A stretch of 58,768 nucleotides of DNA from an uncultured virus (IMG/VR IMGVR_UViG_3300034091_000431). Taxonomy: Duplodnaviria > Heunggongvirae > Uroviricota > Caudoviricetes. The notes beneath the pieces were generated by a model. It did not search any database, was not told where the DNA came from, and was given only the letters and a program-made list of their open reading frames with translations. Made by a program: the position numbers and the translations under genes. Location of the stretch: the IMG/VR virus record IMGVR_UViG_3300034091_000431. One strand, 5' to 3'. Shown here in pieces: positions 10,109 through 45,618 of this stretch (positions are counted from its first letter, which is position 1; each line of letters opens with the position of its first letter).

Positions 10109-10525
10109 TCAGATTCTACCGCTGGCAACCATCGCGCGAAAGTGTTCGTTTGTGAGGCCATCTCTCAGGCGCCGGATGCGACCGACCACCTGAATGGGGT
10201 GCACACCGAGGTCGACGAGCGCGAGCCCTGAGAGGACCCCGGAACGGTTGCGACCCTGCCAGCAGGTGACAAGTACGCGCTGACCCAGACGCACGCGATC
10301 GGCGATCTCGCGCGCCGCGTGCCGGATGCGCATTCTCGTCACCTTGTCGGGCGGTGGCCCGTCGTCGAGCGGCACGTAGATCACGTGGTAGCCCGGTAGC
10401 TCGGGCTGGTACTCCATCGCGGCGAGCACGATGACGTCGAACGGGATGAGCACGTCGGGAGGCGGCGCCTTGCCCTGCGCAAGCCGGCGGTTCGAGAGCA
10501 GGTACGTGTAGTCGCCGCCGCTCAC
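10109..10525 (-). CDS. Dual-specificity (Cys-based) phosphatase, copy 1
   Basis: VLVTCWQGRNRSG CX5R motif and PLDDG acid loop; GTGA overlap with the upstream stop. Confidence 0.9.
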   Translation of the reverse strand: MSGGDYTYLLSNRRLAQGKAPPPDVLIPFDVIVLAAMEYQPELPGYHVIYVPLDDGPPPDKVTRMRIRHAAREIADRVRLGQRVLVTCWQGRNRSGVLSGLALVDLGVHPIQVVGRIRRLRDGLTNEHFRAMVASGRI

Positions 10526-11457
10526 GCCCAATAGATGACCTGGAGAAACCCGGAACCGCCCGCGCCACCGGGGCCGCCATTGCCTGGCGTGGTCGCAGCA
10601 TTGCCGCCTTGACCGCCGCCGCCGCCGCCAGCTCCCGAGTTGGCCGCCGCCGAGGCTCCGGTGCCGCCGACACTACCAGCACCGGCCCCGGTTGCGCCGG
10701 TCCCACCAGTAGCTCCGACGCCGCCCGCTCCGTCAGGACCGCCGCCGCCACCGCCGCCGCCGAGGCCGCCCGGATGAGTAGACGGCATGCCGATACTTCC
10801 ACCGACACCACCAGCGAAGGGGGCGCCTGCCAGACCGATAGCTTGCCCGAGGCCTGCGCACGCGAAGCCCGCGTTGATGCTGCTCCCACCGGAGCCGGGC
10901 ACGCCAGCTCCGACGCTGGCGGATTCGGTGTTGAAGTTGCTCGTGTACGTCTGGACGCCGAACGGATTCGTATTCAGGTTTCGAACTGGAGTGCCGGCGG
11001 CTCCGTTCAGGTTCGCAGAGACGGGGCCTTGATTATTTCCGGCCGCGCCGCCGCCTGCGCCCGTGAACGCGAGCAGACTGCCGAAAGTCGTGTCGCCACC
11101 GGGACTGCCCTGCGTGGACCCTGCGCCCGTGTCTGCGGCGCCGCCCGCTCCTCCGGCCCCGATGCCCACCGCGACGCCGACTCCTGGGGTGATGGGCACG
11201 AAGGCTGATCCCCAGACCGCTCCGCCCCCTCCGCCCCCGCCGACGCCAGCAGCTACGTTGCCCTGGCTGCCCCCGCCGCCGCCAGCTCCGCCGCCGAAGC
11301 CCTGAACGAGTACAGAGGTGACACCTGGCGGCGGGGTGAAGGTTCCGGGGGCATCGAAGGGCACGATGTGCGGGGTCGTACCGGTTCCGCCGCCCGCCCT
11401 CGCCGCGCTCGGGTAGGTCTCGCGCCCTTTGGACCCTCTGCCGATGAGAAACCCCAT
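10522..11457 (-). CDS. Glycine-rich adhesin-like fibre protein with ETYP leader
   Basis: MGFLIGRGSKGRETYP; F..PGTFTPPPGVTSVLVQGFGGG...GGSGFLQVIYW glycine-rich domain. Confidence 0.8.
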   Translation of the reverse strand: MGFLIGRGSKGRETYPSAARAGGGTGTTPHIVPFDAPGTFTPPPGVTSVLVQGFGGGAGGGGGSQGNVAAGVGGGGGGGAVWGSAFVPITPGVGVAVGIGAGGAGGAADTGAGSTQGSPGGDTTFGSLLAFTGAGGGAAGNNQGPVSANLNGAAGTPVRNLNTNPFGVQTYTSNFNTESASVGAGVPGSGGSSINAGFACAGLGQAIGLAGAPFAGGVGGSIGMPSTHPGGLGGGGGGGGPDGAGGVGATGGTGATGAGAGSVGGTGASAAANSGAGGGGGGQGGNAATTPGNGGPGGAGGSGFLQVIYWA

Positions 11458-11514
11458 GCCGATCGACGGTACCAGTGGAACGGTTGCGGGACAATCGGTC
11501 AGCCAGCTCAGACG

Positions 11515-13110
11515 TTAGCCGCTACTGATACTCATTCCGGTGAGCGGCCAGAAGAGGCCGCCCTTCGCGTCGATGTTCGCTGGCGTGATCTCGATCCCGG
11601 TCGTGATCGCGCCGGTTACCTGATTGAACGCGGCAGCGGCCAAGCTCGTACCGGAATTTCCCAAGAAGAGCGCGAACGCGCCCGTTTGCAGGAACGAGTC
11701 GGTGTAGGTAGTAAAGCTCACGTTGATGTTGCTCTGCAACCCGAGGGTGATTTGACCAGGCCCCCATACAATCAGTTCGCCGCTGGCTAGCTCGTCGATC
11801 GTCAGTTGGCCGCCGCCGTAGAACGTGGCAAGGCCGCTGTTCGAGACGTTCCCGATGTAGAGCGCCGCCCCGATATAGTAGAGGCCGGCGACGATCGTGC
11901 CGCTCGAGATGTTGGCGTTGACCACCTGAACATCGAAGTCCAAGCCGCAGAACCCTGCGACGATGAGGTACTCGATAAAGCCGCCGAGGAACGCAGGGCC
12001 GAAAGAGGACGATTCACCGACGCCGGGCGGCTCACTCGATGCGAACCCCCCGATGAAGACGCCGGGCTGCCCCGTATTGAAGTTGCGGTTGAGAAAGCTC
12101 GAGAAGTTCACGGCGACGTAGCTTGCCGCCTGGCTCTCGAGCGAGGCCGCGGACGTGACGTCCTGTACGACGCCGCACTCGACGTTGAGGGTCACGCTCC
12201 CGTTACCGTTGCCGCTCGAGTCGAGGAAGTTTAGCGCTTGAAGGGTCGGAGTCTTGTTCGTGATGTCGAGGTTTCCGGCAGACACCGTCAGGCGCGTCAG
12301 GTTGATCGAGAGCGGGATCTCAACCTGCACGTGATCCGTCGCCGCCCACGTGTCGTCCTCAGCCGGCACGGCGAAGACGTTTCCGATGGCCGCTGCGGTG
12401 AGCGGCTGGCTCATCGTGAGAACCGCTCCCGCGATGGCGACAATCGTTGCGCGGCTCCCCTTGGTCGTGTTGTGGATGAACTGGCCGATAGCAAGCCCTG
12501 CGGGCGGCGCCGTAAGATGTACGCTCAAACGCGTCGCAGTCGCTCGGTTCTTCGCGGTGACAGAGCTGAGCGTCGTCGCAGCGCCGTGCGGGACGTACGC
12601 GCCGAGGATGCCGAAGACCGTCGCGCCATCCGTCAGCGTGATATCGAGGGCGATGTTCTCCTGGTTGACCGTCTCGCTGTTCAGAAACGTGATGTTCGTG
12701 TTCTGCGGCAGGTTCGGACGGTTGGTCCCCCACTTCGGGACGATGCCGCCCATGACCGTCTTGACGGGCGACGCGAGCGTCCCGGGGTTCGTGTCCTTGC
12801 CACCGACAGGGTCCACGTACCACGCGGCCTGCGTGAGCAAGACCAGGATGTCACTCTCGGTGAGCGGCCGGATGTCGTACTCGCCAGCCGCCACATCGAA
12901 TACCGGCACCGCGGATTGCACCGGCGGGGTCGCTGCGACGGGGACCGTCTGGATCCCTTGCATGGTCGCCGGGACGCTCCCGGAGCCGGGACCGGCCTTC
13001 ACGTCCTGGGTGAGCTGGGTGATTCCGGCGCCCCCGCCTCCCGGCGATCGAGCCACCGCTGGATACGTCTCGTGCCCGCCGCGCGCTCGTCGGCCGATGA
13101 GGAAGCCCAT
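11515..13110 (-). CDS. Fibre/spike protein with ETYP leader and probable beta-helix
   Basis: MGFLIGRRARGGHETYP; GITQLTQDVKAGPGSG; WYVDPVGGKDTNPGT..PVKT (DUF1565-like cap). Confidence 0.8.
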   Translation of the reverse strand: MGFLIGRRARGGHETYPAVARSPGGGGAGITQLTQDVKAGPGSGSVPATMQGIQTVPVAATPPVQSAVPVFDVAAGEYDIRPLTESDILVLLTQAAWYVDPVGGKDTNPGTLASPVKTVMGGIVPKWGTNRPNLPQNTNITFLNSETVNQENIALDITLTDGATVFGILGAYVPHGAATTLSSVTAKNRATATRLSVHLTAPPAGLAIGQFIHNTTKGSRATIVAIAGAVLTMSQPLTAAAIGNVFAVPAEDDTWAATDHVQVEIPLSINLTRLTVSAGNLDITNKTPTLQALNFLDSSGNGNGSVTLNVECGVVQDVTSAASLESQAASYVAVNFSSFLNRNFNTGQPGVFIGGFASSEPPGVGESSSFGPAFLGGFIEYLIVAGFCGLDFDVQVVNANISSGTIVAGLYYIGAALYIGNVSNSGLATFYGGGQLTIDELASGELIVWGPGQITLGLQSNINVSFTTYTDSFLQTGAFALFLGNSGTSLAAAAFNQVTGAITTGIEITPANIDAKGGLFWPLTGMSISSG

Positions 13111-13122
13111 GAGCGGAGCGTA

Positions 13123-13272
13123 TCAGAGCAACGCAGCGATTACACCCACCACCACGCCGCCCACGACCGCTCCAGCTAGCGCTGGCACAAGCGGGCTCGG
13201 TGGCGGCGGCGGACAGCCGGGACACGGCGGCGGCAGCGGCGGACAGCTCCCGGCCTGCGGATCACCAGGACC
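13123..13272 (-). pseudogene. Orphan 3' fragment of a tail-anchored membrane protein gene
   Basis: GPGDPQAGSCPPLPPPCPGCPPPPPSPLVPALAGAVVGGVVVGVIAALL*, out of frame with the GT gene it is joined to. Confidence 0.6.
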
Positions 13273-14060
13273 GCAGTCCACGCGCACTCGCCGTAGAAGA
13301 CGCTCGCGCCGAGGCCCCGCCCTGCGGCAGCGATCGCCTCCTCGTGTCGCCCGAGCACATGAAGCTGCTCGGCTTGCTTGTACGCCGCCCATGCAGCCTC
13401 GTCGCCGTACTTGCGCCGCGTCACGCACTGGCCGAAGGCCTCGGCGGCGCGAGCGTGCTTGCCGAGGCCCTCGAAGGACTGGCCGAGGTAAAACCACCAC
13501 CTCGGATCGTCGGGATGCTCGGCAACGTAGTCGCCAAGCAGCTCCGCGTCGCGGGAGAACTTGTGCGCGAGCTGCGCTTGCGTCTTGGAGAGTTCGGAGA
13601 AGGTCACGCCGCGAAGGGTTTCGCGCGAGCCGCCGAGCGGCACCTCGTGCGTCGGACCGACGTACCGGACGGCAGCCACTGCGCGGATGATCTTCTCCTT
13701 CGGGTAGTGCCCATCCGAGGACTCGACGTAGAGCACCTCGGAGGTCGTGCGCGAAAGCGCCTCGCGGAGATCAATCCCGTTCCAGTGAAAGCGCTCATCG
13801 GAATCAACGATCACAATCCAGTCGGCCCCGAGCTTCTTCGCCTCATCGAGCGAGACGTTCCGGGCGGCCGAGAAGTCTTTCCACGCGTGCTTGACGATGA
13901 CGAGCTTGTCCCTGGCAACCTCCAAGGCCCGCGCGATGGTGCGGTCGGTGATTCCCGTGTCGACGATGAGGACCTTGTCCACGTGGGGGGCCACGCTGCC
14001 GATGGCGTCGGAGATCTCGTCCTCACGGCTGCCCGTGATGGTCGCGCTGACGATCAGCAT
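13176..14060 (-). pseudogene. Truncated GT2 + TPR glycosyltransferase (paralogue of 42979-44934)
   Basis: VDTG, DFSAARN, VDSDE, GPTHE, DDPRWWFYLGQS; similarity to the paralogue stops abruptly after ECAW (~13275). Confidence 0.75.
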
Positions 14061-14120: not shown

Positions 14121-15587
14121 TCAGGATAGGACCCAAGACAATCGCACCCAGCCGGACATACCGGCGGCGCCGTTGCCGCCCGTGCCACCTGTAGTCGAAC
14201 CGTTGCCGCCAGCGCCGCCGCCACCACCGCCCGAGGAGCTATTGACCGTTCCTCCTCCGCCAGCCGTACCGTTGCCGCCGGCCCCTGCATCGTTGCCCGC
14301 ACCGCCGTTGCCGCCAGTGCCGCCGCCGCCCGGACCGCCGCCGCCGCCGCCTCCGCCGCCGCCTCCCCCACCGCCTGCATTCGCGGCCCCGTTGGCTCCA
14401 GGGTTTCCGAAGCCGCCACCGCCGTTGACCCCGCCCTGCGTCGAGAGGCCCATATTGTCGTTGCCATGACCTGCCGCGGTCGAGGTTGTAGTTGTTTGGA
14501 AGCCTCCGTTGGCTCCGCTGCCCGGTGCTGCGTTGGACCTCTGGACTGCCGTTCCACCCTGAGCCGTGACGGGAGCGCCGCCCTCGCCAGTTCCGGCTGC
14601 GTTGGAGATTCCGCCGCCGCCGCCGCCGCTGCCGCCGGGAGCCCAGATGCCGTTACCAGTCGTGTTCGTGAATGCGTTCGACGTACCTCCGATGGCGCCA
14701 GCCGATCCGGCCACACCAGCAGCACCGCCGCCGCCGCCTCCGCCTCCGACTCCAATGCCTACGCTGATCGTCGTATCGCCTGTACCGACGGTTATCCAAC
14801 CACTGAAGTGCGTAGCGCCTCCGCCGCCGCCCCCGCCAACCGATCCGGTCACGCTCCCCGTAGAGCCTCCCGCACCACCACCGCCGCCGCCTCCGCCGCC
14901 GGCCCCCTCGAAGAAGACCATGGTAACGCGCGCGGGGATAGGCCATGCGGCATTGCTAGCCGTGAAGATTTGCGAGCTTCCGGTAGTAAGCCCCGACACG
15001 CCGGATGGTCCGGTGGGCCCCGTCGGTCCCGTGGGCCCGGTGCTCCCTTGAGGGCCAGTCGGCCCGGTAATCGAAGCGCCAGTCGCGCCCGTGGGCCCTG
15101 TACTACCCTGCGGCCCGGTCGGTCCCGTGATCGAAGCGCCGGTGGGTCCGGTCGGACCCGTGATGCTTGCACCTGTCGGTCCTGTAGGTCCGGTGATGCT
15201 CGCGCCGGTCGGTCCCGTGCTCCCTTGAGGGCCCGTCGGACCTGTAATGCTCGCACCCGTGGGGCCGGTGCTTCCTTGAGAACCGGTCGGTCCGGTGATG
15301 CTCGCACCCGTTGCGCCCGTCGGTCCGGTGCCGCCCTGCGGACCCGTTGGTCCCGTGATGCTCGCACCAGTCGCGCCTGTCGGACCCGTGCTTCCTTGCG
15401 GCCCGGTCGGACCCGTAATGCTGGCGCCAGTTGCGCCCGAAGGCCCCGTGCTTCCTTGCGGTCCCGTGGGGCCAGTGATGCCCGGACCAGTCGGACCTTG
15501 CGGTCCAGTCGGGCCTGATCCACCTGGATGACGCGTCGTCGGATAGGTCTCGCGCGCGTATTTCCCACGGCCAATTATGTGCGCCAC
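14121..15587 (-). CDS. Collagen-like fibre with ETYP leader and C-terminal glycine-rich domain
   Basis: [16 protein letters not shown]; ([20 protein letters not shown])n at ~15000-15520; poly-Gly domain ending GWVRLSW. Confidence 0.85.
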
Positions 15588-15634: not shown

Positions 15635-16258
15635 TCAGTTGATACCCTGATAGATGTATCCAGACCCCGAGAACGGGTTCGTCATGCTGTTGTAATTTAT
15701 GAGGTTAGCAGTTGAAAGAGTGTTCGTCAGTCCACTGGTAGACGCTCGTGTCGCCAGCGGAACGAGAGCGACGGCGCTGTCGTATGCGCTCTCGCCGATG
15801 GCGATGGCCTCGCTCACGATCGTCCCGAGACCTGGGATGGTCGAGATGGCGGCCTGCACGTCGTGCACGATGTCACCCCACGGGATATTGCCGGCAAACT
15901 TGCCGACGGCGTCGACGATGGGGCCGACCTTCTTGACGACGTCGTTCGCGACGTGCTCGATGTCGCGCGCCGCCTTCGCGACGTCGTTCGTCGCGTGCGA
16001 GATCTCCCTGAAGAGGTCGAAGCCGCCAACGCCGGCAGTCGGTGTCGTCTGCGCCTTGAGCGTCGCGAGGTGCTGCGTGAACGGCATACCGGTCTTCGCC
16101 GCGTGCGCCTTCAGGTCCTGCGCGATCTGCTGCTTGAGGAGCTGCTTGACTTGCCCCGGGGTCTTACCCGCCTTGCCTGCCTGAATCGCGATCGCCTTGT
16201 AGTGCTCGAGGTCGGTGGGTGAGGACGGGGCCGCGCCCAGGGAGAAGAGCTCGTACAT
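15635..16258 (-). CDS. Chimeric truncated paralogue of 9170-10105
   Basis: Closely similar up to ESAYDSAVAL, then switches at ~15763 to an unrelated N/S/T-rich tail. Confidence 0.7.
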   Translation of the reverse strand: MYELFSLGAAPSSPTDLEHYKAIAIQAGKAGKTPGQVKQLLKQQIAQDLKAHAAKTGMPFTQHLATLKAQTTPTAGVGGFDLFREISHATNDVAKAARDIEHVANDVVKKVGPIVDAVGKFAGNIPWGDIVHDVQAAISTIPGLGTIVSEAIAIGESAYDSAVALVPLATRASTSGLTNTLSTANLINYNSMTNPFSGSGYIYQGIN

Positions 16259-16261
16259 GAC

Positions 16262-16672: not shown

Positions 16673-16674
16673 GA

Positions 16675-18336: not shown

Positions 18337-18374
18337 GTTAAGTGTTCCTTCCTGAGAGAGGGCCCATCCTAGCA

Positions 18375-19433: not shown

Positions 19434-20306
19434 GACGCCACCGTGACTGTAAATGGAGAGCTCAGGGTGTTGGACGCCCAGAGGGTCATGGACACCGTCG
19501 CTCCCTCCTGGTTGACGAAGCCGAACGTCGCGACCGACGTCATCGGGAAGCCGAAACCATTCTGGTCCTTGAACGTGTGCGCCCCGGCGGGCAAGAGGAT
19601 GTAGATCACCTGGCTGACGGGGCTAAACGGACCGAAGCTCGTGCCGACGAAGTTCGCCGCGAGGAAGCTGTCCGAGAGTGTTCCTGCGCCGCCGTTCAAG
19701 ATGGCCGTGTTGACCCCGGCCGTGGCGCTCGTCGCACCCGCGGTGCCGATGCCGCCGAAGCCTCGGTCCTGGAACGCGATGGTCTGCGTCGCCGTCTTGG
19801 TGGTCGGGCCCACAGCCGTCAGCGTGAAGGTGACGTTTGCGGGCGACGAGTGCGTGAAGGCTCCGGTGACGGTCCCTGAAGTGAACGGCGTCGTCAGGAC
19901 CAGCGGTGAGTCGATCCCGTCGGAGTTCGTGATCTGGGCGCTCGTCGGCAAGCTCGAGTAGCTCGCCGAGAAGGTGGGGTTGGTAACCGTTGCACCGGTC
20001 TCGACCGTGCTTCCGCCCGTGAAGCTCGTGATCGAGAACCCCGCCGCGATGTCGTCGGCGGTGAGCTGCCGCGCCACCCACTCGGTCCCGTTCCAGACAT
20101 ACACGTTGCTGTCGTTCGTTCGTAGGTGCTCCAGGATCTACGGGGAGGTCCTGAAAGCCCGCTACGGTCGCTGCAACGTTTCCACTTCCGGGACCGGCGA
20201 CGACGTCTTGGTGAAGCTGGGTGATTCCACCGCCGCCTCCGCCCGCCTTGGCAGAGGTCGGATACGTCTCACGCCCCTGCCCTTTTCGACCGATGAGGTA
20301 TCCCAC
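19430..20306 (-). pseudogene. ETYP-leader fibre protein split by a +1 frameshift near 20115
   Basis: MGYLIGRKGQGRETYP..GITQLHQDVVAGPGSG..PGAPTN continues as DSNVYVWNGTEWVARQLTADDI in another frame; both halves align with the N-terminus of 11515-13110. Confidence 0.75.
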
Positions 20307-21534: not shown

Positions 21535-22596
21535 TCAAAAGTTCATGCTGAAGAAGATGCCGTCAGCGGGCGCTTTGCTGGAAGACGGAATTTCGCCGTT
21601 TGAGACCTGACCGATCGTCGGGATGCCAAGCCCTCCTCCCGGGTTAGCTGTCACGTAAAGCAGAGCCTGCTGGGACGTTGTCGATCCGTAAGAGTCGGTG
21701 ACGATGCACGTGTACGCGCCCGAGTCTCCAACGCCAAGCGTTCCCGTTGTGTAGCTCGAACTCGTTGCGCCACCGATGTTCGAACCGTTCAGCTGCCACT
21801 GGTAGGAGAGGCTTCCGGCGCTCGCGACTGCCGTGACGCTGAAGGTCGCAGTCTGGCCGACGTTGACCGTCTGACTACTCGGCTGCGACGAGATGAAGAG
21901 AGCTTTGCTCTGGAACGTGACGATTCCGCAACCCCACGCGTCGCTCCCGCCATTATGAAACGTAGCAGTAGACTGTACGGATCCCGGTGCGCCTAGAACG
22001 AGATCGACCTCGGTCTGCTCGCTGTCGGACGCCGCGTCTCGAACGTTCCACTCGCTGTTCCACGACGTCGCAGAGAACTGCGGGTACATGGGAGCGCCGG
22101 TAGTCCACGCGGCGAACACGAGCTCGTTCGGGAAGAGTGTCGTGACGCTGGGGGTCTGCCCGCTGGTGCCGCTGGTCGCAGGTGTGTAGGCCGCTTGGTC
22201 AAGTAGAACCTTGCGTGCCAGCTCCCGTCGCTCCGGTTGCTCCCGGTGTGCCCGCTCCTGTAGCCCCGGTGGCTCCTGAAGCCCCTACACCGGTGGCTCC
22301 GGTCGTTCCAACACCGGTCGCGCCGGTCGACCCCGCAGTGCCTACTCCTGTCGCTCCTGTCGCACCGGCGCCGGTCGCACCTGTTGCGCCTGGCGCGGTC
22401 GGTCCCGTGGCTCCGGTCGCTCCTGAAGCCCCGAATCCAGTGGCGCCTGTTGCGCCTTGGGTGGCCGCTCCCGTCGATCCCGCGGCGCCGGTAGCGCCCG
22501 TAGCCCCGTGGATCCACTAGCGGAGCCGCCGCCGAACGACGGAACGCTGGGATAGACCTCCCGCGCATACCTGCCCCTGCCGATTAGGTACGCCAC
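21535..22596 (-). pseudogene. Disrupted ETYP-leader collagen fibre joined to an Ig-like-domain gene end
   Basis: [16 protein letters not shown]; frameshift at GGGG (~22505); (GAT)n collagen to a TGA at ~22200; then LDQAAY...ISSQPSSQTVNVGQTATFSVTA..YQWQLNG..DSGAYTCIVT (Ig I-set-like) in another frame. Confidence 0.7.
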
Positions 22597-22663: not shown

Positions 22664-24400
22664 CTACGACCAGTAGACGATCTCGACGAAGCCCGATCCG
22701 CCGTTGCCGCCCGTGCCGCCGTTCGTCAAAATGTCTGCGTTGCTCGAACCGCCTGCGCCGCCCCCACCTCCGCCTGCTCCAGAGTTGGCTGCGGCGCTGC
22801 CGCCGGCCTGACCATCGACGCCAGCTCCGGCATCATTACCGTTGCCACCATTGCCCCCGCCGCCACCTGCGCCGTCGGGACCTCCTCCGCCGCCACCGCC
22901 TCCTCCGCCGCCTAGGAAACCGAGACTATTGGAACCGTTATCCCCGCCAACTCCGCCTCCGTAAGGTGATCCGGAACCGTCATTCGTCCCCTGCCCGATG
23001 CCGTAGCCGCCGTTGATATTGATCGTTGCATTCGCGAATTGCCCTGACCCGCCAGCACCAGGAACGGCGATCCCAAGATTGGAACCTGTCCCCGTACTCA
23101 GCCTGCTATTGGTGTAATTGTTGACGAGAGCAAAGGTCGTGTTGTTCGGCGCGCCGCCGAAACTTGAACCGCCACTACTTCCGGGGGTACTACCGGCATC
23201 GCCGCCGCCGCCTCCATTGAACGTGGCCAGCGTGGAACCGCTCTGAGCGATAATGCTGTTGCCGCCGGCAGTGCCTGGCCCGGCCTGAGTAACGGTGCCT
23301 CCATCTCCTCTAGGGCCACCTGCTCCCCCTAAGCCTACGGTCACGTCTACGACGGTGCCGGCTACAACGGTGATGAATGTGGTACCTTCGATGGCAGCCC
23401 CGCCACCTCCGCCGCCTGCTGCACCGCCATCCGAATCGTATCCGTAACCGCCGCCTCCCCCTCCGCCGCCACCTCCCGCGCCTCGAACGATCGCGAAGGT
23501 GACTCCCGCGGGAGGCGTCCAGGTTCCGGTCGACGTGAAGGGAACGGTTGTGGGAGTGCCTGCGGATCCGGTCGCTCCCGTCGCTCCCGTGTGTCCGGTT
23601 GCGCCCGTTGCTCCGGTTGCGCCCGTGGTTCCAGCGCCTGTACTTCCGGCCGATCCGCTTGCGCCTGTCGTCCCCGTGCTGCCGGAGGCTCCGCTTGCGC
23701 CAACGCTTCCTGCTGCTCCGCTCGCACCAGTGCTTCCGGTTGTTCCAGCGTTTCCTGTCACACCGGTTACTCCGGTGTGTCCAGTCGCTCCAGTCGATCC
23801 CGTCGCTCCAGTCGATCCCGTACTGCCGGTGACGCCTGCGCCCGTCGCTCCGGTAATGCCGGTCGACCCCGTATTTCCGGTGGCACCCGTGACTCCAGCG
23901 CCGGTGGTTCCGGTGATTCCAACCGGTCCGGTGATTCCCGTCGCCCCCGTGCTGCCCGTCGCTCCGCTAGCACCGCCGCCAGGACCGATCGGCCCAGTCA
24001 CACCTGTGGATCCGGTGACGCCAGCGCCGGTGATCCCGGTAGCGCCGGTCACACCCATATTTCCGGTGGCTCCAGTGCTGCCTGTCGAGCCGGTGACGCC
24101 GGCGCCTGTAACCCCCGTCGCCCCCGTGGCGCCGGTCGCTCCGGTCACTCCACTAACACCCGTCGAACCCGTCGCCCCAGTCACCCCCGCCCCGGTGATG
24201 CCGGTGACGCCAGAAGCCCCGGTGGAGCCAGGACTTCCTGTCGCTCCCGTAGAACCAGTCACTCCAGCGCCAGTGATCCCCGTGGCTCCTGAGGGGCCAG
24301 TAATTCCGGTCGATCCCGTGGTTCCGGCGGTACCACCCGTCTGCGGGGCGTTCGGATACGCCTCGCGGGCGTACCGGCCTCGGCCGACGATGTATGCCAC
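22664..24400 (-). CDS. Collagen-like fibre with EAYP leader and C-terminal glycine-rich domain
   Basis: [16 protein letters not shown]; long G-X-T repeats ~23560-24330; [14 protein letters not shown]...[11 protein letters not shown]. Confidence 0.85.
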
Positions 24401-30105: not shown

Positions 30106-30112
30106 GGCCGAT

Positions 30113-30151
30113 AATATGTGCCAACGGAAAAGATACGTCAAGGGCCTTGCG
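30113..30151 (-). promoter_or_regulatory. sigma70 promoter, copy B of the 37-bp direct repeat
   Basis: TTGACG-17 bp-CATATT immediately upstream of the RHH gene; 35/37 identical to copy A. Confidence 0.75.
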
Positions 30152-30194
30152 CGGTCCTTTATCGTTGCTACGATAAGTGGTGAAGGAGACCAAC

Positions 30195-32151: not shown

Positions 32152-32631
32152 TCAGACGGGGGTCGTGATGAGGACCAGGCTGCCGTTTGTCGCTGTTGCT
32201 CCAGTGGCAGTCGTACAATTCGCCTTGATGTCCACTTCGTGAGCACCGTCCGTCGGCGTCTCCCAGAACAGACTGAACGGAACTGGCTGGGGCGGGCTCG
32301 GGAAAATTCCACCGGAACTAGGCACGAAGGCGACAATGGAATAGGCTGGCGTCGGGGAACCGTCCAGATAGATGCCCACAGCAACTGTCGAATTGCCTGG
32401 CACCTCGGAACTGTTTGGCCACTGAAGCTGCCCGGAAAACATGACGATGATGCGCTCTTCCGCGCTACCAGCGTCGATGGGGCCATCCGGGAGAAGGCTA
32501 ACCGGAGGGGTATTGATAAAGTTGACAGGGGTCTTATTGACCACACTTTGCGAACTGATGGTCGGCTGACCGGAAAAATCCGGCGGATACGCTTCCGGAG
32601 ATTTGCCCTTGATTCCAGCGAGCTTGCCCAT
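32152..32631 (-). CDS. Small beta-sandwich virion protein, paralogue 3 (SPEAYP leader)
   Basis: MGKLAGIKGKSPEAYP; FSG..P(V)PFSL..H.VDIKA. Confidence 0.75.
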   Translation of the reverse strand: MGKLAGIKGKSPEAYPPDFSGQPTISSQSVVNKTPVNFINTPPVSLLPDGPIDAGSAEERIIVMFSGQLQWPNSSEVPGNSTVAVGIYLDGSPTPAYSIVAFVPSSGGIFPSPPQPVPFSLFWETPTDGAHEVDIKANCTTATGATATNGSLVLITTPV

Positions 32632-32641
32632 GAAATCCTCC

Positions 32642-33073
32642 TTAGGTGGTAACGATGTTGAGACTGCCACCCGCTGCGGCACTGGCTGTACCAGAAACCG
32701 TCGCGGCCTTGATGTCGAGGGCGCCACTGAGGGCCGTCTCAACGACCAGGCTGAACGGCGTCGGAGAGTTTGCCAGACCTCCCGAGGAGGCGGTCTCGAC
32801 AGAAATCGTGTAGACGACCACCCCGCCGACCACCACCTCTACGTTTACCGTCACGCCAGCGCTTGGACTGGGACTGACGAGCGTACCCGAGAACGCGATG
32901 ATGTTCTTGTGACCCGCCGCCAAAGCGATGGGATCAATGAGAAGGCTCGCGAGAACGGTCGAGAGACTCACCGGCGAACCATTTACTTGAGCCGTCGTGG
33001 TCACGATGCCCGAACGGTGAGGACTGTCGTACGTTTCCGGCGACCGACCCTTCAATCCAGCTACCTTGCTCAT
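32642..33073 (-). CDS. Small beta-sandwich virion protein, paralogue 2 (SPETYD leader)
   Basis: MSKVAGLKGRSPETYD; FSG..NVEVVV..PTPFSL..LDIKA. Confidence 0.75.
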   Translation of the reverse strand: MSKVAGLKGRSPETYDSPHRSGIVTTTAQVNGSPVSLSTVLASLLIDPIALAAGHKNIIAFSGTLVSPSPSAGVTVNVEVVVGGVVVYTISVETASSGGLANSPTPFSLVVETALSGALDIKAATVSGTASAAAGGSLNIVTT

Positions 33074-33081: not shown

Positions 33082-33528
33082 TTAGGCCGAGGTGACGACG
33101 ACAACGGCACTACCGTCTATCGCCTGGGATGTTCCGGAAGTTGCTTGAGCCTGGATGTCGATGGTGTGAGGACTCGCGGAGAGTCCACCAGTGACGTCGA
33201 AAGCGATGCCGAACGGCACCGGTGCGCCCGCCGTTTTGACATCCACTGCGTACGTGTAGACGGGAGTGCCGTCCACGATAACCTCCACGTTGGTGGCGGC
33301 GGCGCTCGGACTGGCAGTCTGCAAGACGCCGGAAAAGAGAACGAGAGCCTTGGCCGACACTGCGGGAGTAAAGCTGATCGGTGAGCTGAGAAGACTGGTG
33401 GGAGAGCTACTGTTGATAGCGACCGGCGAACCGGGCCCCACCTTCGGCAGCGTCTCCAGAACGTTCGACTTGATCGGTGCAGACGGATACGTCTCCGGCG
33501 ACCTGTTCTTCATACCTGCAATCTTCAT
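33082..33528 (-). CDS. Small beta-sandwich virion protein, paralogue 1 (SPETYP leader)
   Basis: GAGGAG RBS; MKIAGMKNRSPETYP; FSG..NVEVIVDG..PVPFGI..HTIDIQA. Confidence 0.75.
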   Translation of the reverse strand: MKIAGMKNRSPETYPSAPIKSNVLETLPKVGPGSPVAINSSSPTSLLSSPISFTPAVSAKALVLFSGVLQTASPSAAATNVEVIVDGTPVYTYAVDVKTAGAPVPFGIAFDVTGGLSASPHTIDIQAQATSGTSQAIDGSAVVVVTSA

Positions 33529-37991: not shown

Positions 37992-38069
37992 GCGAGCTCA
38001 AGTGTAACACGGTCGGACAGGTTGAATAGATGGCGCCGGTGCTACGTCCTACAGGCGAGGAGACCTCCC

Positions 38070-39544: not shown

Positions 39545-40110
39545 CACGGTCTCCATTCTCGGTTACGAAAGAACGTCAAGGTACGACGCCCCCACGTCTC
39601 CCCCTTACTTGTCGCACGCAGTTTCGCTGTCTCCTCTGGCACGTGATCAAAGCCAGCCGTGCTGAACCGTTCCAACCAGAACGCTTCATCACGCTCGCAC
39701 ACGTGGTGATGCCCACCCTGCCCGGGCGTCGCGAACGTGATGCAAGCGTACTGACAAGCCTGGAGCGCTCGCATCCAGTTGGAGATGAACTGCTCCTCGA
39801 CGTGCTCGACGAATTCAGAGGACCACCCGAAGCTGTATCGATCTCGCGGCTCCCACGGACCTGTCGTGAAGTCGTGAGAGATGATGGGATCGCAGCAGCG
39901 CGCCGCTAAAGCTCCAGGATCCCCCTCGATGCCGAGCGCATGTACGCCATGATCCAGAAACCATTGCGTGGTCCAGCCGGCTCCACAACCGATGTCGAGC
40001 ATGCTCTTGATGCCGTACTCCACGATCAAACGCTCCCAGATGTCGGGCATCCACGTGAAGGCATCCGCATGCGAGAGTGAAGCGCCACCGAGATGGGGAG
40101 GGGTCGTCAT
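39544..40110 (-). CDS. Class I SAM methyltransferase
   Basis: MLDIGCGAG, EFVEHVEE, ATPGQGGHHHV. Confidence 0.85.
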   Translation of the reverse strand: MTTPPHLGGASLSHADAFTWMPDIWERLIVEYGIKSMLDIGCGAGWTTQWFLDHGVHALGIEGDPGALAARCCDPIISHDFTTGPWEPRDRYSFGWSSEFVEHVEEQFISNWMRALQACQYACITFATPGQGGHHHVCERDEAFWLERFSTAGFDHVPEETAKLRATSKGETWGRRTLTFFRNREWRP

Positions 40111-40904
40111 GTGCCGATCAGTTCGCAAAGCATACGCACATGTGCATCGTTTGGGAACCACTCGCGGCGTTTGAGAATTCTGTCCCGCTGCACACCGCCA
40201 ACCTGCCGAAGACTTTCGCGATCCGCATCCGACAGTGAGCCGTAAACAGTCGGGTTGAGCGCTCGAATCATCGCCATGAGATGTCCGTGGTTGCCGCAGG
40301 CGCTGCCGCCGTTGTCCTCGTGCCGCCTGTAAAAGTAGAGCAGCTCCTGGATCACGTGCACGTGCGGGTTGAACTGGGAACACTTGGCCCAGAACTCCCA
40401 GTCCTCGTAACAGGGGAGCGCGTTCTCGAAACCGCCTGACCTCTCCCAAAGTTCTCGATCGAATAGAGCCATCGCCGGAAGCACGTTGTGGTGCCAGTGC
40501 GCGAGCATGTGAACCGTTATCTCCCCGATCTCCCACGTGCTCGTTTCGGTCCCGAACTTTTGCAGCTGCGCACTGATGATGTTGTGTCCACGCTCCATCC
40601 TCGCGAGCGCCTTACTCAGGAACTCGGCACCGATCTTGTCGTCGGCATCGAGCGTGACAATCCACGGACTATGAGCTGCCTCAATCGCGACGTTTCGCGC
40701 GTTCGCGTTCCCCTTCGCGCCATCGTCAATGACTCGGATCCGGGGCTCGTGAGAGTACGAATTAGCGACCGAGCGGCACCCCTCGTCACCAGCTGCGACA
40801 ATAATCTCCCAATCCCTAAACGTTTGACCCAACACACTGTTGATCGCGTCGCCCAGAAACGCTGCCTGACGGAAGGCTGGAATGACGACGGATATGTACG
40901 GCAT
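40107..40904 (-). CDS. GT2 glycosyltransferase
   Basis: ISVVIPAF, ARNVAI, LDADD, EDWEFW. Confidence 0.9.
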   Translation of the reverse strand: MPYISVVIPAFRQAAFLGDAINSVLGQTFRDWEIIVAAGDEGCRSVANSYSHEPRIRVIDDGAKGNANARNVAIEAAHSPWIVTLDADDKIGAEFLSKALARMERGHNIISAQLQKFGTETSTWEIGEITVHMLAHWHHNVLPAMALFDRELWERSGGFENALPCYEDWEFWAKCSQFNPHVHVIQELLYFYRRHEDNGGSACGNHGHLMAMIRALNPTVYGSLSDADRESLRQVGGVQRDRILKRREWFPNDAHVRMLCELIGT

Positions 40905-40908
40905 CTCT

Positions 40909-41523
40909 TTACTCAGGTATTCCCGTGTTATGTTGACCGACGAGACGAGGAAGAACCGTATAGACCTTCAGCTTCGGGTAAGAGTGCAACATCAAACTAA
41001 TATCGACCGGCGCATAGGTGCCGACCTCGTCTTGCGTCTTCATGAGGACCGGTAACGCCTTACGAGCAAGCACCATCGCGTGCGTGCAGAGTGGGTAGCG
41101 TACGTCCCATACATCGCCCTGAACGAACGTTTTTGGTTTGCCCTGCGTGCAGCAGCTGCCAATCAAGAGCACGTCAAAGTCGCCTGGCGTATCTCTGAGC
41201 GCAACATCGAATCGTGCACGCCAGTCCGCAGGCAGCTCTGCATCGTCTTCCAAAACGAGCACGTGCTCATCTGGCCAACATGCGAGCATCGCCCAAAGAG
41301 CCCGGTGAGACAGCCAGCAGCCCGTCGGCATTTCTCCCATGCACCAGTCGTTGTCCGGGCGATCGATGGTGTACGGTTTTCGTGTAGTTACCCCAAGTCG
41401 GCTCGCATGTAGACCGTGGAAAAATTGCGCCTCGATACCGCGCTCCGCAAAGTGTTGGCGCGTCTGCAACGGACCTCTTTCCCCGTACGAGTCATCCGCG
41501 ACTGTGATGCAAACCGTTTTCAT
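40909..41523 (-). CDS. GT25-family glycosyltransferase
   Basis: GCWLSHRALW, LVLEDDA, CTHAM, PVD. Confidence 0.85.
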   Translation of the reverse strand: MKTVCITVADDSYGERGPLQTRQHFAERGIEAQFFHGLHASRLGVTTRKPYTIDRPDNDWCMGEMPTGCWLSHRALWAMLACWPDEHVLVLEDDAELPADWRARFDVALRDTPGDFDVLLIGSCCTQGKPKTFVQGDVWDVRYPLCTHAMVLARKALPVLMKTQDEVGTYAPVDISLMLHSYPKLKVYTVLPRLVGQHNTGIPE

Positions 41524-42146
41524 TCCGGCAGCCCCGGCAAATCGACCTGCCCCACGATCCGAGGGAGCACCGTCAGCGCACGCATGGTCGGCAACGAGTA
41601 AAAGTACGTGGAGATGTCCATATGGGTGTGGGCTTTGACGGCATCCTGCGTAGAGATGAGGCGCCTAAGCACGCGGTGACCGTTCACCACGTAAGCGTGC
41701 ATGCACATCGGATAACGCACCTCCCAAACCTGGCCTCGGACATGTTCTTTTGGCTTGTCGGTAGTACAACATGACCCAACGTAGAGGAGGTCGAAGTCTC
41801 CCGCGTCGACCATGGCCTGCTCGACACGCGGGCGCCAGTCTTCTGGAAAATTCGCGTCGTCCTCGAGCAAGAAGAACCGATCATCGGGGAGTAGTAAACA
41901 TGCCGCCCAAAGCGCACGCTGCGACAACCAATTACCAAGCCGGCGCGTATCCATCACCGAACTGGTATTTTCGTCAAACGGTGCGGTCGCAACGATTCCA
42001 GCACGTGGAGCGTCGATGCCGTAGAAAAAATCAGCTTCGAGCCCTCGCTCGACAAAGTGCGCGTGGGCCCTGTCTCTGGATCGCATCAATCCGGGCTGCC
42101 AGACAGACTCGTACGGGATGCTGGTCGTCAGACAGATCGTTTTCAT
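41520..42146 (-). CDS. GT25-family glycosyltransferase (tandem paralogue)
   Basis: GNWLSQRALW, LLEDDA, shared GSCC..KPK..V.G.VW.VRYP.C.HA. Confidence 0.85.
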   Translation of the reverse strand: MKTICLTTSIPYESVWQPGLMRSRDRAHAHFVERGLEADFFYGIDAPRAGIVATAPFDENTSSVMDTRRLGNWLSQRALWAACLLLPDDRFFLLEDDANFPEDWRPRVEQAMVDAGDFDLLYVGSCCTTDKPKEHVRGQVWEVRYPMCMHAYVVNGHRVLRRLISTQDAVKAHTHMDISTYFYSLPTMRALTVLPRIVGQVDLPGLPE

Positions 42147-42772
42147 GCCGGCAACCGATACACGCCCCATTTACCGTACGTCTCGACAAGACGAGCGCCC
42201 AACTCGAGCAACTTCTGCTGAGCCTTGACAGTGCTTGGCCAATCGATGTCATCCATCACCCATATGCCGCCGGGCACCACCTTTGGAATGAAGGCATCGA
42301 TTTCCGCGCAAGACACCGCGGGCGAGTGATTGCTGTCCTGATGCAGGATGTCGATCGACCCATCCGCGTACCTCGACACGGAATCAAGTGATTTAGAACG
42401 CAGAATGGTTGCGTGCCGGCTGACCCCATACTTTTCGAGTGAATCGGTGGCACTCCGCAGAATCTTCTCGTAGTCAATATTTCGCCAGTACTCGATGTGG
42501 CTTGGATCCATCTCAGATTCAAGCGCCGCATCGACCGTGTACGCATCAATTCCCTCGACTCGGCCTCGTCCGGCAGACGCGCAGCCTAGCGCCATAGCGA
42601 GCAATGACCGACCACCGAAGACTCCGAGTTCGACACCAAGACGCGGACAGTGCTCTGCGCATAGCTGCACCAGTCTCACGGCCTTCTCGACCGTGCACCA
42701 ACCATCCATTAGCGGCGAAGCCGACGGTCCCATCGCCTGGTCGATGACAGAGTAAGCGTGCTTGAAATTCAT
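42143..42772 (-). CDS. Class I SAM methyltransferase (Methyltransf_24-like)
   Basis: GWCT..KA, VELGVFGGRS, ILHQDSNHS, PGGIWVMDD. Confidence 0.85.
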   Translation of the reverse strand: MNFKHAYSVIDQAMGPSASPLMDGWCTVEKAVRLVQLCAEHCPRLGVELGVFGGRSLLAMALGCASAGRGRVEGIDAYTVDAALESEMDPSHIEYWRNIDYEKILRSATDSLEKYGVSRHATILRSKSLDSVSRYADGSIDILHQDSNHSPAVSCAEIDAFIPKVVPGGIWVMDDIDWPSTVKAQQKLLELGARLVETYGKWGVYRLPA

Positions 42773-42960
42773 TGGCGTTCGCCCTTCCCCGATCTCAGTA
42801 TCGACAGCTCCTTTTCGATGCCGGCGACCCGAACGATCTCTGCGGCCGGCGTTCCGAGACGCTTGGCTGCCTTCATGAGCAGCTTCTTCTGGTTGATCGT
42901 CAACCGCACGAGCACCCGCTCGCTCAACTTGTCCTTGAGAAGCTTCGGCGGGCGACCCAC
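42769..42960 (-). CDS. Ribbon-helix-helix DNA-binding protein
   Basis: MGRPPK..VLVRLT..QKKLL..AA..LG...AEIVR. Confidence 0.7.
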   Translation of the reverse strand: MGRPPKLLKDKLSERVLVRLTINQKKLLMKAAKRLGTPAAEIVRVAGIEKELSILRSGKGERQ

Positions 42961-42978
42961 GAATTGCGAGACTACTCG

Positions 42979-44934
42979 TTACGGCTTGCAAAGCAAGCCT
43001 TCGACCTCTCCAACGTCCACCCTCAGAATCCACGCCTGCTTGTCTTCGATGCCGAAGGACACCACAATCTTACCGTCGTCAACGACCAATCCCGCCGCGA
43101 ACTCAATTCCGTAGTGGTCGAACACAAACGCCGGCGAGACGGCCGTCACGTTGAACCGTTCGTCGAGCCGCACGAACCGATGGAGGTAGATGCGCCCGTC
43201 GACCTCGTCGACCACCTCGTGCGTGATGCACAAGTACCCATCCTCGAACTCCGTGACCGCGCCGCCACGCAGGTGCTCCAGCCGGAACGGGCAGCTTCGC
43301 TTGATGCCGATCGGCAAGATGACCGTGGGATCGAGCGAATAAATCCACACGAGCTTCCCGTCCTTCGAGAAGGGCATCCAGTTCTTTTCATGCTTTTGAA
43401 AGCTGGGCTGAAACCTCGCACGCGCGACGTCTCCTCCCTTGAACTGGAGCGACGCGATCCTTACGCCTTCCGAGTATTTGGTTCCGCACACGGTGGAGCT
43501 CCCAACAAGCTTCCCACCCACCGATGCGAGGCGAACGTCCTCGTACCCGAACGGCTTCTGGTAGCGCGCATCAAGGTCCTTCATCCTCCTCATCCCCGTG
43601 AGCCGTCCATCCCTCTTGAACCGACCCAGGTAGTTCTCCGTCCGCGTGATGCCGTCCTTGTCGAGAATGCCGTACCGGCGACCCTTCACCCAGTAGTTGA
43701 CCGTCCGGACGACGCACCAGAGCTCCCCGTCGTGCACGCAGATGCTCGGGTTCATCGCGCGCCTGTTCTTCTTGGGCGGCTTGAAGTCGAGCGGGGTGAA
43801 GCGCGCGCTTGGACACATCTTGCCGATCGCGTCCGGCCGAAGGAGCTGCCTCGCTTCCTCGCACCGCGCGAGCGGCGCCTCTCGCGAGACGCTCAGTCGA
43901 TCGAGCTCGGCAGCGCTCGAAACACCCAGCCGCGCGTGCTGCGCGGCCTGGTAGTCAAGGTCCGCCTTCTCGCGCCCTTCCTTGTCCGGCAGCGCAAATC
44001 TCAGTACATCGTACGGCAACTCAAACAAGGCCGGCGGGTGCCGAAAGAAGCTCCGCGGCTTTCCGCAACCGTTGTGCATCCCGACGGCTTCCGCCATCCG
44101 TGCCCACGCCACCGCCTCCTCGTTCCGGCCGAGCTTGTGCGCCACGACGGCTGCCATCCACGCGCACTCGGCGAGCGGACTCGATCCCATCCCCTTCGCG
44201 GCGACGGCGATCGCTTCATCGTGTCGTCCGAGACGATAGAGCTGGTCCGCCTGCCGGTAGGCTGCCCACGCCGCCTCGTCGCCGACCCTCCGGAGGTCCG
44301 CGCAGCGCCTGTAGGCTTCCACCGCGCGAGCGTGCTTGCCGACGCCCTCGAGCGACTGCCCGAGGTAAAACCACCACCTCGGGTCGTCGCGTTCGGCCGC
44401 GTAGTCAGTCAGGATGCCGACGTCGCGATCGCACTTCTCTGCGAGCTCCATCTTCGACTTGGGGAGCTCGTCGAAGACAACGCCGGCGAGCTTCTCGCGG
44501 AGACGCCCCCCGACGAGGACCTCGTGCGTCGGCCCTTCGAACCAAACTTTGGCGGCGGCGCGTACGATCTTCGGCTTCTCGTAGGTGCCCTCGACCGACT
44601 CGAGCGAGAGCACGTCAGCCCGCGTCTTCTTGAGAGCCGACCGCAGGTCCACGGAGCCGAAGTCGAAGCGTTCGTCAGAGTCGACGATGACGATCCACTT
44701 GGCTCCGAGCGAGCGCGCCTCGTCGAGCGCGGCATTGCGGGCGGTCGAGAAGTCCACCCACTCGTGCTCCGCGACGAGGAGCTTCTCGCCCGCGACCTTC
44801 TTCGCGTACCGGATCGTCTTGTCTTCGATCCCGGTGTCGACGAGAAGAACACGGTCGACGTGCGGCGCTACGCTCCCGAGCGCGTCAGCAATCTCAGCCT
44901 CGCGGCTGTTTGACAGCGTGACGCTGACGATCAC
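42979..44934 (-). CDS. GT2 + TPR + beta-propeller glycosidase-like fusion
   Basis: GT2 motifs (VDTG, DFSTARN, DSDE); TPR; C-terminal NPSI, GYEDVRL, EKNWMPF, IEFAAGL, SFGIED. Confidence 0.85.
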   Translation of the reverse strand: MIVSVTLSNSREAEIADALGSVAPHVDRVLLVDTGIEDKTIRYAKKVAGEKLLVAEHEWVDFSTARNAALDEARSLGAKWIVIVDSDERFDFGSVDLRSALKKTRADVLSLESVEGTYEKPKIVRAAAKVWFEGPTHEVLVGGRLREKLAGVVFDELPKSKMELAEKCDRDVGILTDYAAERDDPRWWFYLGQSLEGVGKHARAVEAYRRCADLRRVGDEAAWAAYRQADQLYRLGRHDEAIAVAAKGMGSSPLAECAWMAAVVAHKLGRNEEAVAWARMAEAVGMHNGCGKPRSFFRHPPALFELPYDVLRFALPDKEGREKADLDYQAAQHARLGVSSAAELDRLSVSREAPLARCEEARQLLRPDAIGKMCPSARFTPLDFKPPKKNRRAMNPSICVHDGELWCVVRTVNYWVKGRRYGILDKDGITRTENYLGRFKRDGRLTGMRRMKDLDARYQKPFGYEDVRLASVGGKLVGSSTVCGTKYSEGVRIASLQFKGGDVARARFQPSFQKHEKNWMPFSKDGKLVWIYSLDPTVILPIGIKRSCPFRLEHLRGGAVTEFEDGYLCITHEVVDEVDGRIYLHRFVRLDERFNVTAVSPAFVFDHYGIEFAAGLVVDDGKIVVSFGIEDKQAWILRVDVGEVEGLLCKP

Positions 44935-44937
44935 GGC

Positions 44938-45144
44938 CTACGCCGTGGGACCGCGCGATCGGAGACTGATGGCCTGGTCGCGAGGGCGCGAAGCGTTCCG
45001 CCAGCCCGAGAAGCCGGTGTCGTAGGCGTGGTGCACGGGACTCGCCGCGCGCCTCTCGCGGTAGAGCGCGAGGTCCAGGATGGAGCGAGGCGCCGTGAGG
45101 GGGTTGCCCGTCTTTGCCCGCAAATTTTTGAGCTTCCGCCTCAT
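44938..45144 (-). CDS. Small basic hypothetical protein
   Basis: Fills the gap in the minus-strand run. Confidence 0.4.
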   Translation of the reverse strand: MRRKLKNLRAKTGNPLTAPRSILDLALYRERRAASPVHHAYDTGFSGWRNASRPRDQAISLRSRGPTA

Positions 45145-45151
45145 GATCGAA

Positions 45152-45424
45152 TCAACCTTTCGGATCGCCCAGCAGGGCTAATAGTACCCCATCCGCAGCC
45201 ATCGCGAGAAAACTTGTCGCGCAGCCGACCACGAGCGCGTCCACGACGCGCCCATGGCCGGTCGTCACAAGGCCGCCTGCCCCTGCCGCGATACCGACCC
45301 AGGTCCCCGTACACTGGCTGCATCCGAGAAGTGCCGGGTAGAGTTTCTGGATCGGCCGGAAGAGGGTCGAGCGCGAGACGATGAGCGTCGCGCCGATGCA
45401 GGCGGAGAGGAGGAGGAAGAGCAT
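45152..45424 (-). CDS. DUF1360-like small membrane protein
   Basis: T.IVSRSTLFRP.....LLGCSQCTGTWVG; three hydrophobic segments. Confidence 0.65.
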   Translation of the reverse strand: MLFLLLSACIGATLIVSRSTLFRPIQKLYPALLGCSQCTGTWVGIAAGAGGLVTTGHGRVVDALVVGCATSFLAMAADGVLLALLGDPKG

Positions 45425-45618
45425 CAGACGTTGACGACTTGAGCGACAAGCCAGCAGTTGTTTGCAACACCCGAACTCGATCCGGTCGATCCAGTGACAC
45501 CGGTTACCCCGGTCGGACCACCGGCAGGACCCGTGGCGCCCGTGGACCCTGCTCTCCCCGGAGAACTCGGATAGGTCTCACCACCCCCGCGTCGCGGACC
45601 CTTGATGACGAAACCCAT
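45424..45618 (-). CDS. Miniature ETYP-leader collagen-like protein, possibly internally deleted
   Basis: MGFVIKGPRRGGGETYP, a few G-X-T triplets, then NNCWLVAQVVNV*. Confidence 0.65.
   Translation of the reverse strand: MGFVIKGPRRGGGETYPSSPGRAGSTGATGPAGGPTGVTGVTGSTGSSSGVANNCWLVAQVVNV

Follow-up and report, generated by a model that had tools for sequence, protein, structure and literature searches.

We analysed a 58,768-nucleotide stretch of DNA from an uncultured virus (IMG/VR record IMGVR_UViG_3300034091_000431), referred to here as the window, which carries ten genes whose products open with variants of one short peptide, here called the tag. An initial annotation of the window had noticed an N-terminal peptide shared by ten proteins, and this was borne out. 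The regular expression E[TAV]Y[PD] has exactly ten matches in a six-frame translation of the window, all on the minus strand and all N-terminal, 12-14 residues past the start codons of the ten genes that had been named. The mean over 50 base shuffles of the window was 1.36 matches (standard deviation 1.05). Seven genes carry a type-A tag, M-[G/A]-[F/Y/H]-[L/I]-[I/V]-G-R...R-E-[T/A/V]-Y-P, with starts at 11457, 13110, 15587, 20306, 22596, 24400 and 45618; those at 15587, 20306, 22596 and 24400 begin with GTG, not ATG. Three small tandem genes, with starts at 32631, 33073 and 33528, carry a type-B tag, M-x-K-[L/V/I]-A-G-x-K-G-[K/R]-S-P-E-[T/A]-Y-[P/D]. The genes at 13110 and 45618 have one additional residue before ETYP, and both were missed by the tag profile described below.

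The tagged proteins continue into different bodies, as had been claimed, and the collagen runs and poly-Gly domains among them were confirmed in the window genes. The type-A tag MGFLIGRGSKGRETYP (11410..11457, minus strand, as are all that follow) heads a 311-residue protein with a Gly-rich body (10522-11457) and scores 34.3 bits against the tag profile. Collagen-like repeats followed by a Gly-rich domain were found in 14121-15587 (488 residues; tag at 15540..15587; tail-fibre PHROGs, 1.8e-26), and a collagen-like stalk followed by a Gly-rich domain in 22664-24400 (578 residues; tag at 24353..24400; PHROGs, 6.2e-28). The tag with an extra residue, MGFLIGRRARGGHETYP (13060..13110), heads a 531-residue protein of no known family (11515-13110). 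Two type-A genes are frame-disrupted in this assembly: the tag GYLIGRKGQGRETYP (20259..20306) heads 19430-20306, which lies in two frames with one frameshift after about residue 63, and the tag at 22549..22596 heads 21535-22596, where the collagen part is out of frame with both the tag and a C-terminal Ig-like domain (21535-22119; Pfam Ig_3, 5.8e-8). A variant type-A tag, MGFVIKGPRRGGGETYP (45568..45618), sits on a 64-residue stub open reading frame (ORF) with a short collagen run (45424-45618). The type-B tags MGKLAGIKGKSPEAYP (32584..32631), MSKVAGLKGRSPETYD (33026..33073) and MKIAGMKNRSPETYP (33484..33528) head proteins of 159, 143 and 148 residues (32152-32631, which has a strong Shine-Dalgarno sequence in front, 32642-33073 and 33082-33528), and their bodies of ~145 residues are paralogues, 29-38% identical. 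The proteins of 11515-13110 and 19430-20104 had no match in any family library scanned, and the sole part they have in common is a stretch of 30 residues that follows the tag. In PDB and NCBIfam, the tagged bodies of the window matched only collagen-like adhesins, far under the cut-offs. Reading-frame changes occur inside three minus-strand genes of the fibre region (18375-19433, 19430-20306 and 21535-22596), as assembly errors in repeats or as real decay.

The tag is conserved as a peptide and not as DNA. The five type-A tags of the same length in the window give 94 codon pairs for identical residues, of which 48 differ in the codon used, and the tags are 66% identical as nucleotide sequences. 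Since synonymous sites differ, the conserved object is the peptide rather than a DNA or RNA element, and the tag is under selection at the protein level. The regions upstream of the tagged genes are mostly unrelated, apart from a short string, CTGATAC, common to three type-A genes.

A 20-position profile of the tag (A2), built from 42 type-A tags, was searched against 1.84 billion (1.84e9) representative proteins at a cut-off of E<=1e-3 and returned 202 representatives. The initial annotation had anticipated that a profile of the N-termini would find the tag at the starts of fibre-like proteins, and the matches were strictly N-terminal: among the 150 best, 147 start at residue 1 and two at residue 2, both V-starts. 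The remaining match runs from residue 6, where the motif opens at a Val that is perhaps the true start. In a logo of these 150, which as the best matches are by construction the most consensus-like, all 150 sequences have G6, E13, Y15 and P16 and 149 have R9, and Gly, Ala, Pro and Ser make up 63% of the next 12 residues, the linker. Type A opens with M-[S/G/A]-[H/Y/F]-[I/L]-[I/V] across the clade of viruses described below, and type B is a milder variant of it. The bodies behind the tag are diverse, with the 136 representatives of at least 100 residues falling into 71 BLAST components. Collagen runs directly follow the linker in 26 of the 136 and are missing from the other 110; many tagged representatives are small single-domain proteins of the latter kind. 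Pfam assigned Collagen to ten bodies, Ice_binding to two and, weakly, LbR_Ice_bind and BclA_C to one each (BclA_C at 28 bits, under the 38-bit cut-off), and 122 had no match. PHROGs matched 31 of the 136, and the known categories were tail (22) and virion structural protein (three); six had matches of unknown function only, and none was non-structural. All ten clusters that were looked up consist of unnamed or 'hypothetical' metagenome proteins.

The tag is confined to one clade of viruses among what was searched. The clade carries homologues of a 431-residue protein encoded at 50886..52181 on the minus strand of the window, which has 32 relatives in IMG/VR (46-75% identical) and no tblastn match in a cultured-phage collection. 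The 10-kb flanks of the genes for these relatives contain the same N-terminal peptide again. A DNA pattern for 11 residues of the tag occurs at 17 places in IMG/VR, all in contigs of the clade. Sixteen of the 17 contigs hold the gene for the 431-residue protein, in line with the expectation that the tag would be confined to genomes with a homologue of it, and the 17th is a 65%-complete fragment with a homologue of another core gene, 2392-3801. The tag profile matches 24 of 30 records of the clade, including 16 of the 20 with a completeness of 90% or more, and finds one to eight matches per record. Four complete records, G005, G016, G026 and G028, had no profile match. A 486-residue ORF of G016 carries a type-B-like tag, G026 and G028 have looser variants recognised by eye, and the complete record G005 has no tag at all and keeps the three-gene module to which the 431-residue protein belongs. 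Two collagen-like genes lie in G005 (L066-L071; ~14.1-17.8 kb on the minus strand and 61.6 kb on the plus strand), one very long and the second starting MSNPRETCP, apparently left over from the tag's second half. The tagged genes behave like accessory insertions amid the core genes; between the homologues of 45623-45814 and 44938-45144, for example, six of them lie in the complete relative G003 and none in G005. The profile had no match in three metagenome-assembled genomes (MAGs), nor in 201 genomes of the order of the MAG with the CRISPR array described below, where scoring did not extend to all first-look candidates. Direct terminal repeats are present in the complete relatives, which measure 116-125 kb, G003 being 116 kb. 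The exact 431-residue protein of the window is also encoded on a 120.8-kb contig, and the window is therefore about half a genome. The habitat of the clade we take to be that of its soil and freshwater metagenomes. No description of the clade was found in the literature covered, from which supplementary files and subscription papers were excluded.

The 431-residue protein is the most conserved of the clade and a candidate major capsid protein. Its gene is followed by one for a protein of 202 residues (50177..50785, minus strand), a small capsid or penton candidate, and one for a protein of 344 residues (48979..50013, minus strand) with a core of ~290 residues and then a Pro-rich tail. This three-gene module, with the 431-residue gene first and genes for ~200 and ~290 residues after it, was found at 32 of 32 loci, and in the window the tagged genes lie on the same strand. 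The predicted structure of the 202-residue protein (predicted local distance difference test score, pLDDT, 84.5; predicted template modelling score 0.78) consists of one jelly roll with flanking helices. The best match in Foldseek was the capsid protein of Sulfolobus polyhedral virus 1 (SPV1; 6oj0_A, E 9e-4, probability 0.99, template modelling (TM) scores 0.39/0.43), followed by chains of HHIV-2 (probability 0.92-0.97) and SH1. VIA gave Z scores of 5.0-7.3 to viral jelly-roll capsid proteins (EhV-201, PBCV-1, HHIV-2, ASFV p72, FLiP, mavirus, SPV1 and HCIV-1), mixed with non-viral sandwiches of similar Z, and also matched the triple jelly roll of an archaeal-virus turret protein (PDB 4ind). 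From this model we read the 202-residue protein as a putative capsid protein of the jelly-roll type, from a virus without a tail. Its comparison with P23-77 VP16 and VP17 by hhalign revealed no profile similarity, and none of the three module proteins matched a PDB sequence in profile searches. The model of the 431-residue protein was poor (pLDDT 55); its confident core resembles a beta-sandwich or jelly roll with generic matches, at TM ~0.09 and meaningless in Foldseek and at Z ~5 in VIA to generic beta-sandwiches, including SPV1, HCIV-1, P23-77 VP16 and PRD1 P3 (Z 4.3). An ESM Atlas search was uninformative for both the 431- and the 202-residue proteins. Across the clade, residues 1-30 of the 431-residue protein form an N-terminal arm, xRSI[I/V]G[R/K]-basic-[F/Y/W]-G, that is loosely like the tag and is not scored by the tag profile.

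A rough gene call of G003, with 109 proteins scanned against Pfam and 56 against PHROGs, revealed helicases, a primase, a PD-(D/E)XK nuclease, ThyX, ParB, an integrase, a rhomboid protein, a subtilase and glycosyltransferases. Neither these scanned proteins nor the window gave a match to a terminase, portal, HK97 capsid, tail-tube or adaptor protein. The only tail-category match in G003 was to phrog_196, a baseplate-hub family, over its C-terminal part. Just upstream of the capsid-candidate gene in the window lies a gene for 1031 residues (52243-55338, minus strand) in which ~60-base tandem repeats encode Arg-rich units (RRRRHR..EAAPVATEA), and its product, in which membrane segments are predicted and His-rich repeats also occur, resembles a core protein that condenses DNA. 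Two further minus-strand genes, 45817-46899 and 46896-48770, encode LysM-domain proteins that end in a membrane helix and then a Lys/Arg tail; the former contains seven 18-base tandem repeats encoding PMPMPA. The Arg-rich protein and the membrane-anchored LysM proteins would be in keeping with a membrane-containing particle whose core is condensed.

The tagged genes lie among glycosyl- and methyltransferase genes. About 12 such domains are encoded on the minus strand of the window (13176-14060, 20352-21494, 24463-29113, 39011-44934 and 56949-57599), some of them fused in proteins of 663 and 884 residues, and two glycosyltransferases (13176-14060 and 42979-44934) contain tetratricopeptide (TPR) repeats. 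Most of the window's transferases have no counterpart in three complete relatives, so the sugar chemistry seems lineage-specific. The fibre gene block also includes a 566-residue protein (16675-18375, minus strand) that is without the tag and starts with what resembles a lipoprotein-type signal (...VVAAAC); some surface-type proteins here therefore do without the tag. A two-gene cassette is duplicated on the minus strand (9170-10531 and 15635-16693, 76-86% nucleotide identity), each copy beside a tagged gene. It encodes a helical protein (207 or 311 residues) and a 140-residue dual-specificity-phosphatase-like protein with an intact C-x5-R loop. The phosphatase-like gene (10109-10531 and 16262-16693; loop VTCLQGRNRSG) is the only window gene that is present in G003 and G004 and absent from the tag-less G005, and it was considered as an obligatory partner of the tag. 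This idea was dropped, since the gene does not track the tag over the 30 records: it occurs in 12 of them against 24 for the tag, with the tag and no gene in G007, G008 and G021 and the gene and no profile match in G028.

Evidence on the host came from a genome-collection scan, in which a match of 15 identical residues was found on a contig of 220 kb with the title uncultured Polyangiaceae MAG. The locus is an array of clustered regularly interspaced short palindromic repeats (CRISPR; L058, 9890-10739) with 12 repeats and 11 spacers. One 38-base spacer matches positions 51594-51631 (minus strand) of the window, inside the gene for the 431-residue protein, with one mismatch, and none of 100 shuffles matched. 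The same spacer matches most members of the clade with 1-4 mismatches, and relatives of the 431-residue protein are encoded on two other MAG contigs, titled Candidatus Binatia and Polyangiaceae. On the basis of the spacer match and the MAG contigs, our best guess for the host of the clade is a Polyangiaceae-type myxobacterium.

Collectively, these results suggest that the tag is probably a docking plug for interchangeable fibres, a reading that draws on analogy with known systems. It fits best because a fixed N-terminal peptide is joined through a linker to varied bodies, is restricted to one clade, is carried by fibre- and knob-like proteins and occurs in viruses with a putative jelly-roll capsid. 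The first 16 residues would act as a self-contained address peptide, which a flexible Gly/Ala/Pro/Ser linker would join to any of many bodies. In this way the tag may anchor the fibres, knobs and collagen stalks of these large viruses at a single conserved site of the particle, and a virus could alter or extend its set of surface proteins by putting another body after an unchanged plug. Candidate binding sites for the tag are the 431-residue, the 202-residue and the ~290-residue proteins of the module. The tag would thus bind the particle and the bodies would recognise hosts; we infer the receptor-binding role from the fibre-like bodies alone.

The design principle is a known one. The N-terminal tail of the adenovirus fibre (FNPVYPY) binds a cleft between penton-base monomers (PMC8156859). 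Like that tail, the tag is short and conserved and lies at the very N-terminus of fibre proteins that otherwise differ (147 of 150 from residue 1; 71 components). Adenovirus fibres attach to a jelly-roll capsid protein, and here a gene for a jelly-roll capsid-like protein adjoins the candidate capsid gene, which suits the analogy. The likeness is nonetheless one of analogy and not of membership: the FNPVYPY motif is absent and only Tyr-Pro is in common, and the tag, unlike the adenovirus peptide, is basic, starts at residue 1, heads at least 71 unrelated bodies in up to 11 genes per genome, belongs to viruses with a bacterial host and has a putative docking role. Klebsiella podophages of the KP32, K11 and KP34 types reportedly use conserved N-terminal docking peptides and anchor domains of their receptor-binding proteins. 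For secondary tailspikes, a conserved docking peptide has experimental validation (PMC13352976). The tagged proteins are like these phage proteins in their conserved N-terminal peptide, unrelated bodies and modular, plug-and-play arrangement. The phage peptides dock on the primary tailspike's branching domain in tailed phages, whereas here the peptide is a different one and the tailed-podovirus context is missing, with no terminase, portal, tail-tube or adaptor match in G003 or the window.

A third comparison is with the Bacillus exosporium, where a 19-residue N-terminal peptide of BclA binds trimeric BxpB, and where a short peptide suffices for binding to this beta-sandwich base protein (PMC10470788). 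As in BclA, an N-terminal peptide is followed in some tagged proteins by a Thr-rich collagen-like stalk and an apparent C-terminal knob, with many sugar-modifying genes nearby. They differ in that BclA belongs to a bacterial spore surface and not to a virus, in the motif itself, and in that collagen runs are present in only 26 of the 136 tagged proteins. The module proteins had no family matches in the library scans, which included no search aimed at relatives of BxpB. In PRD1, the vertex spike P5 has a collagen-like stretch and is held on the penton protein P31 through its N-terminal part. The viruses studied here would share with PRD1 a jelly-roll capsid, a tail-less, membrane-containing particle in a bacterial virus and a spike joined through its N-terminal part. 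PRD1 differs in having one or two such proteins and a 15-kb genome, and the fold match of the 431-residue protein to P3 is weak. Judged by sequence, the tag peptide is unrelated to those of the systems compared. The I-I-G-R-G part of the tag also fits the (M/I/L)XGX-G consensus of adenain-type cleavage sites; this candidate was set aside, the match being of low information and no such protease having been found in G003.

Several observations weigh against a docking plug. The capsid assignment leans on the 202-residue protein, because the model of the 431-residue protein is poor and its fold matches are generic, and most of the 'tail fibre' PHROG matches of tagged proteins rest on low-information collagen repeats. 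Three of the seven type-A genes of the window are broken or stubs. The tag-less G005 retains collagen genes with other N-termini, and fibres can therefore be handled without this tag. Gene-presence profiles (G003, G004 and G005, and the 30 records) revealed no partner, all module proteins persisting in G005. Likewise, no conserved column of the three module proteins was changed in both of the rows taken as tag-less, one of which, L016, was later found to have a type-B-like tag. Finally, up to 11 tagged proteins per genome are many for 12 vertices, so that attachment at vertices only seems crowded, and we speculate that attachment to ordinary capsomers is at least as likely. A more elaborate version, which we put forward tentatively and regard as doubtful, is that a 'hairy' myxobacterial virus, tail-less and membrane-containing, uses the tag as its universal plug. 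Dozens to hundreds of glycosylated collagen fibres and knobs would cover the capsid lattice beyond the vertices, the peptide occupying a site of the kind taken by the capsid protein's own N-terminal arm, as an independently evolved counterpart of the adenovirus fibre-penton joint and the BclA nap for more than 200 surface proteins.

The tag might instead be a recognition handle for the TPR-bearing glycosyltransferases or for a chaperone, by which substrates are glycosylated or folded before use. The interleaving of tagged genes with many glycosyl- and methyltransferase genes speaks for this, as do the peptide-binding TPR repeats of two glycosyltransferases and the Thr-rich collagen repeats, which resemble the reportedly glycosylated stalk of BclA (described in part in PMC10470788). 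However, the tag-less G005 also encodes a TPR-glycosyltransferase, G003 and G004, which bear the tag, lack counterparts of most transferases in the window, and the tag heads many small non-collagen proteins. We consider a handle unlikely, and it would be compatible with a dock, the two not being mutually exclusive.

It is less probable still that the tag is an export or membrane-targeting signal whose basic, partly hydrophobic N-terminus directs proteins to the cell surface or the viral membrane. The tag is indeed strictly N-terminal and Arg-rich and includes a short hydrophobic pair, the virus has genes for several tail-anchored membrane proteins (among them the two LysM proteins), and a tagged representative of 54 residues (P0002) has a hydrophobic stretch that by eye resembles a membrane helix. 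The logo, however, contains only two hydrophobic residues, followed by Gly/Arg-rich and then Gly/Ala/Pro/Ser-rich positions, with no hydrophobic core of signal-peptide length and no Tat motif. Because no hydrophobic core follows it, the tag is not Sec- or Tat-like, which agrees with the initial annotation. It was also absent from the 204 cellular genomes searched, so that no host pathway is known to read it.

A role as a folding or trimerisation nucleus for fibres is very improbable. Collagen-like proteins need a registration domain, and collagen runs directly follow the linker in some tagged proteins; the large majority of bodies described above nevertheless have no such run, many of them being small single-domain proteins, and 16 residues with a flexible linker are short for a registration domain. 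The proposal that shared 5' ends are conserved as DNA or RNA, as a cassette-swap recombination site or a translation-initiation element with the peptide as a by-product, is hardly tenable and largely refuted: shared gene starts would favour body exchange, and the upstream CTGATAC strings and a serine recombinase gene (5742-6407) could be cited for it, but codon choice and nucleotide sequence diverge within the tag, start codons are ATG or GTG, upstream regions are otherwise unrelated, and conservation is at the level of residues across 202 clusters.

Should the tag be a docking plug, a single short profile would pick out the whole repertoire of surface proteins in a widespread clade and make its host-recognition genes findable in any metagenome. 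A bacterial virus with a jelly-roll capsid would then have arrived anew, on a far larger scale, at the 'one plug, many fibres' design known from adenoviruses, tailed phages and spores. If it is a tag for loading cargo, its 16 residues would offer a simple laboratory display handle. Even if it is not a dock, a peptide so conserved on so many proteins would still mark some recognition step.

Beyond the tagged genes, the window has a plus-strand block at its left end with the serine recombinase gene named above (5742-6407; Resolvase, 6e-35) and a gene (7214-7981) with a weak EAD2 match (22.3 bits, cut-off 23.8); neither was found in the three complete relatives compared. Two further plus-strand ORFs interrupt an otherwise minus-strand block. 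No family match was found for 38022-39005 in Pfam, PHROGs and NCBIfam or for 30062-30889 in NCBIfam, the only library used for it. The two ORFs (30062-30962 and 38022-39005) contain Cys and are paralogous, their DNA being 76-78% identical over ~460 bases.

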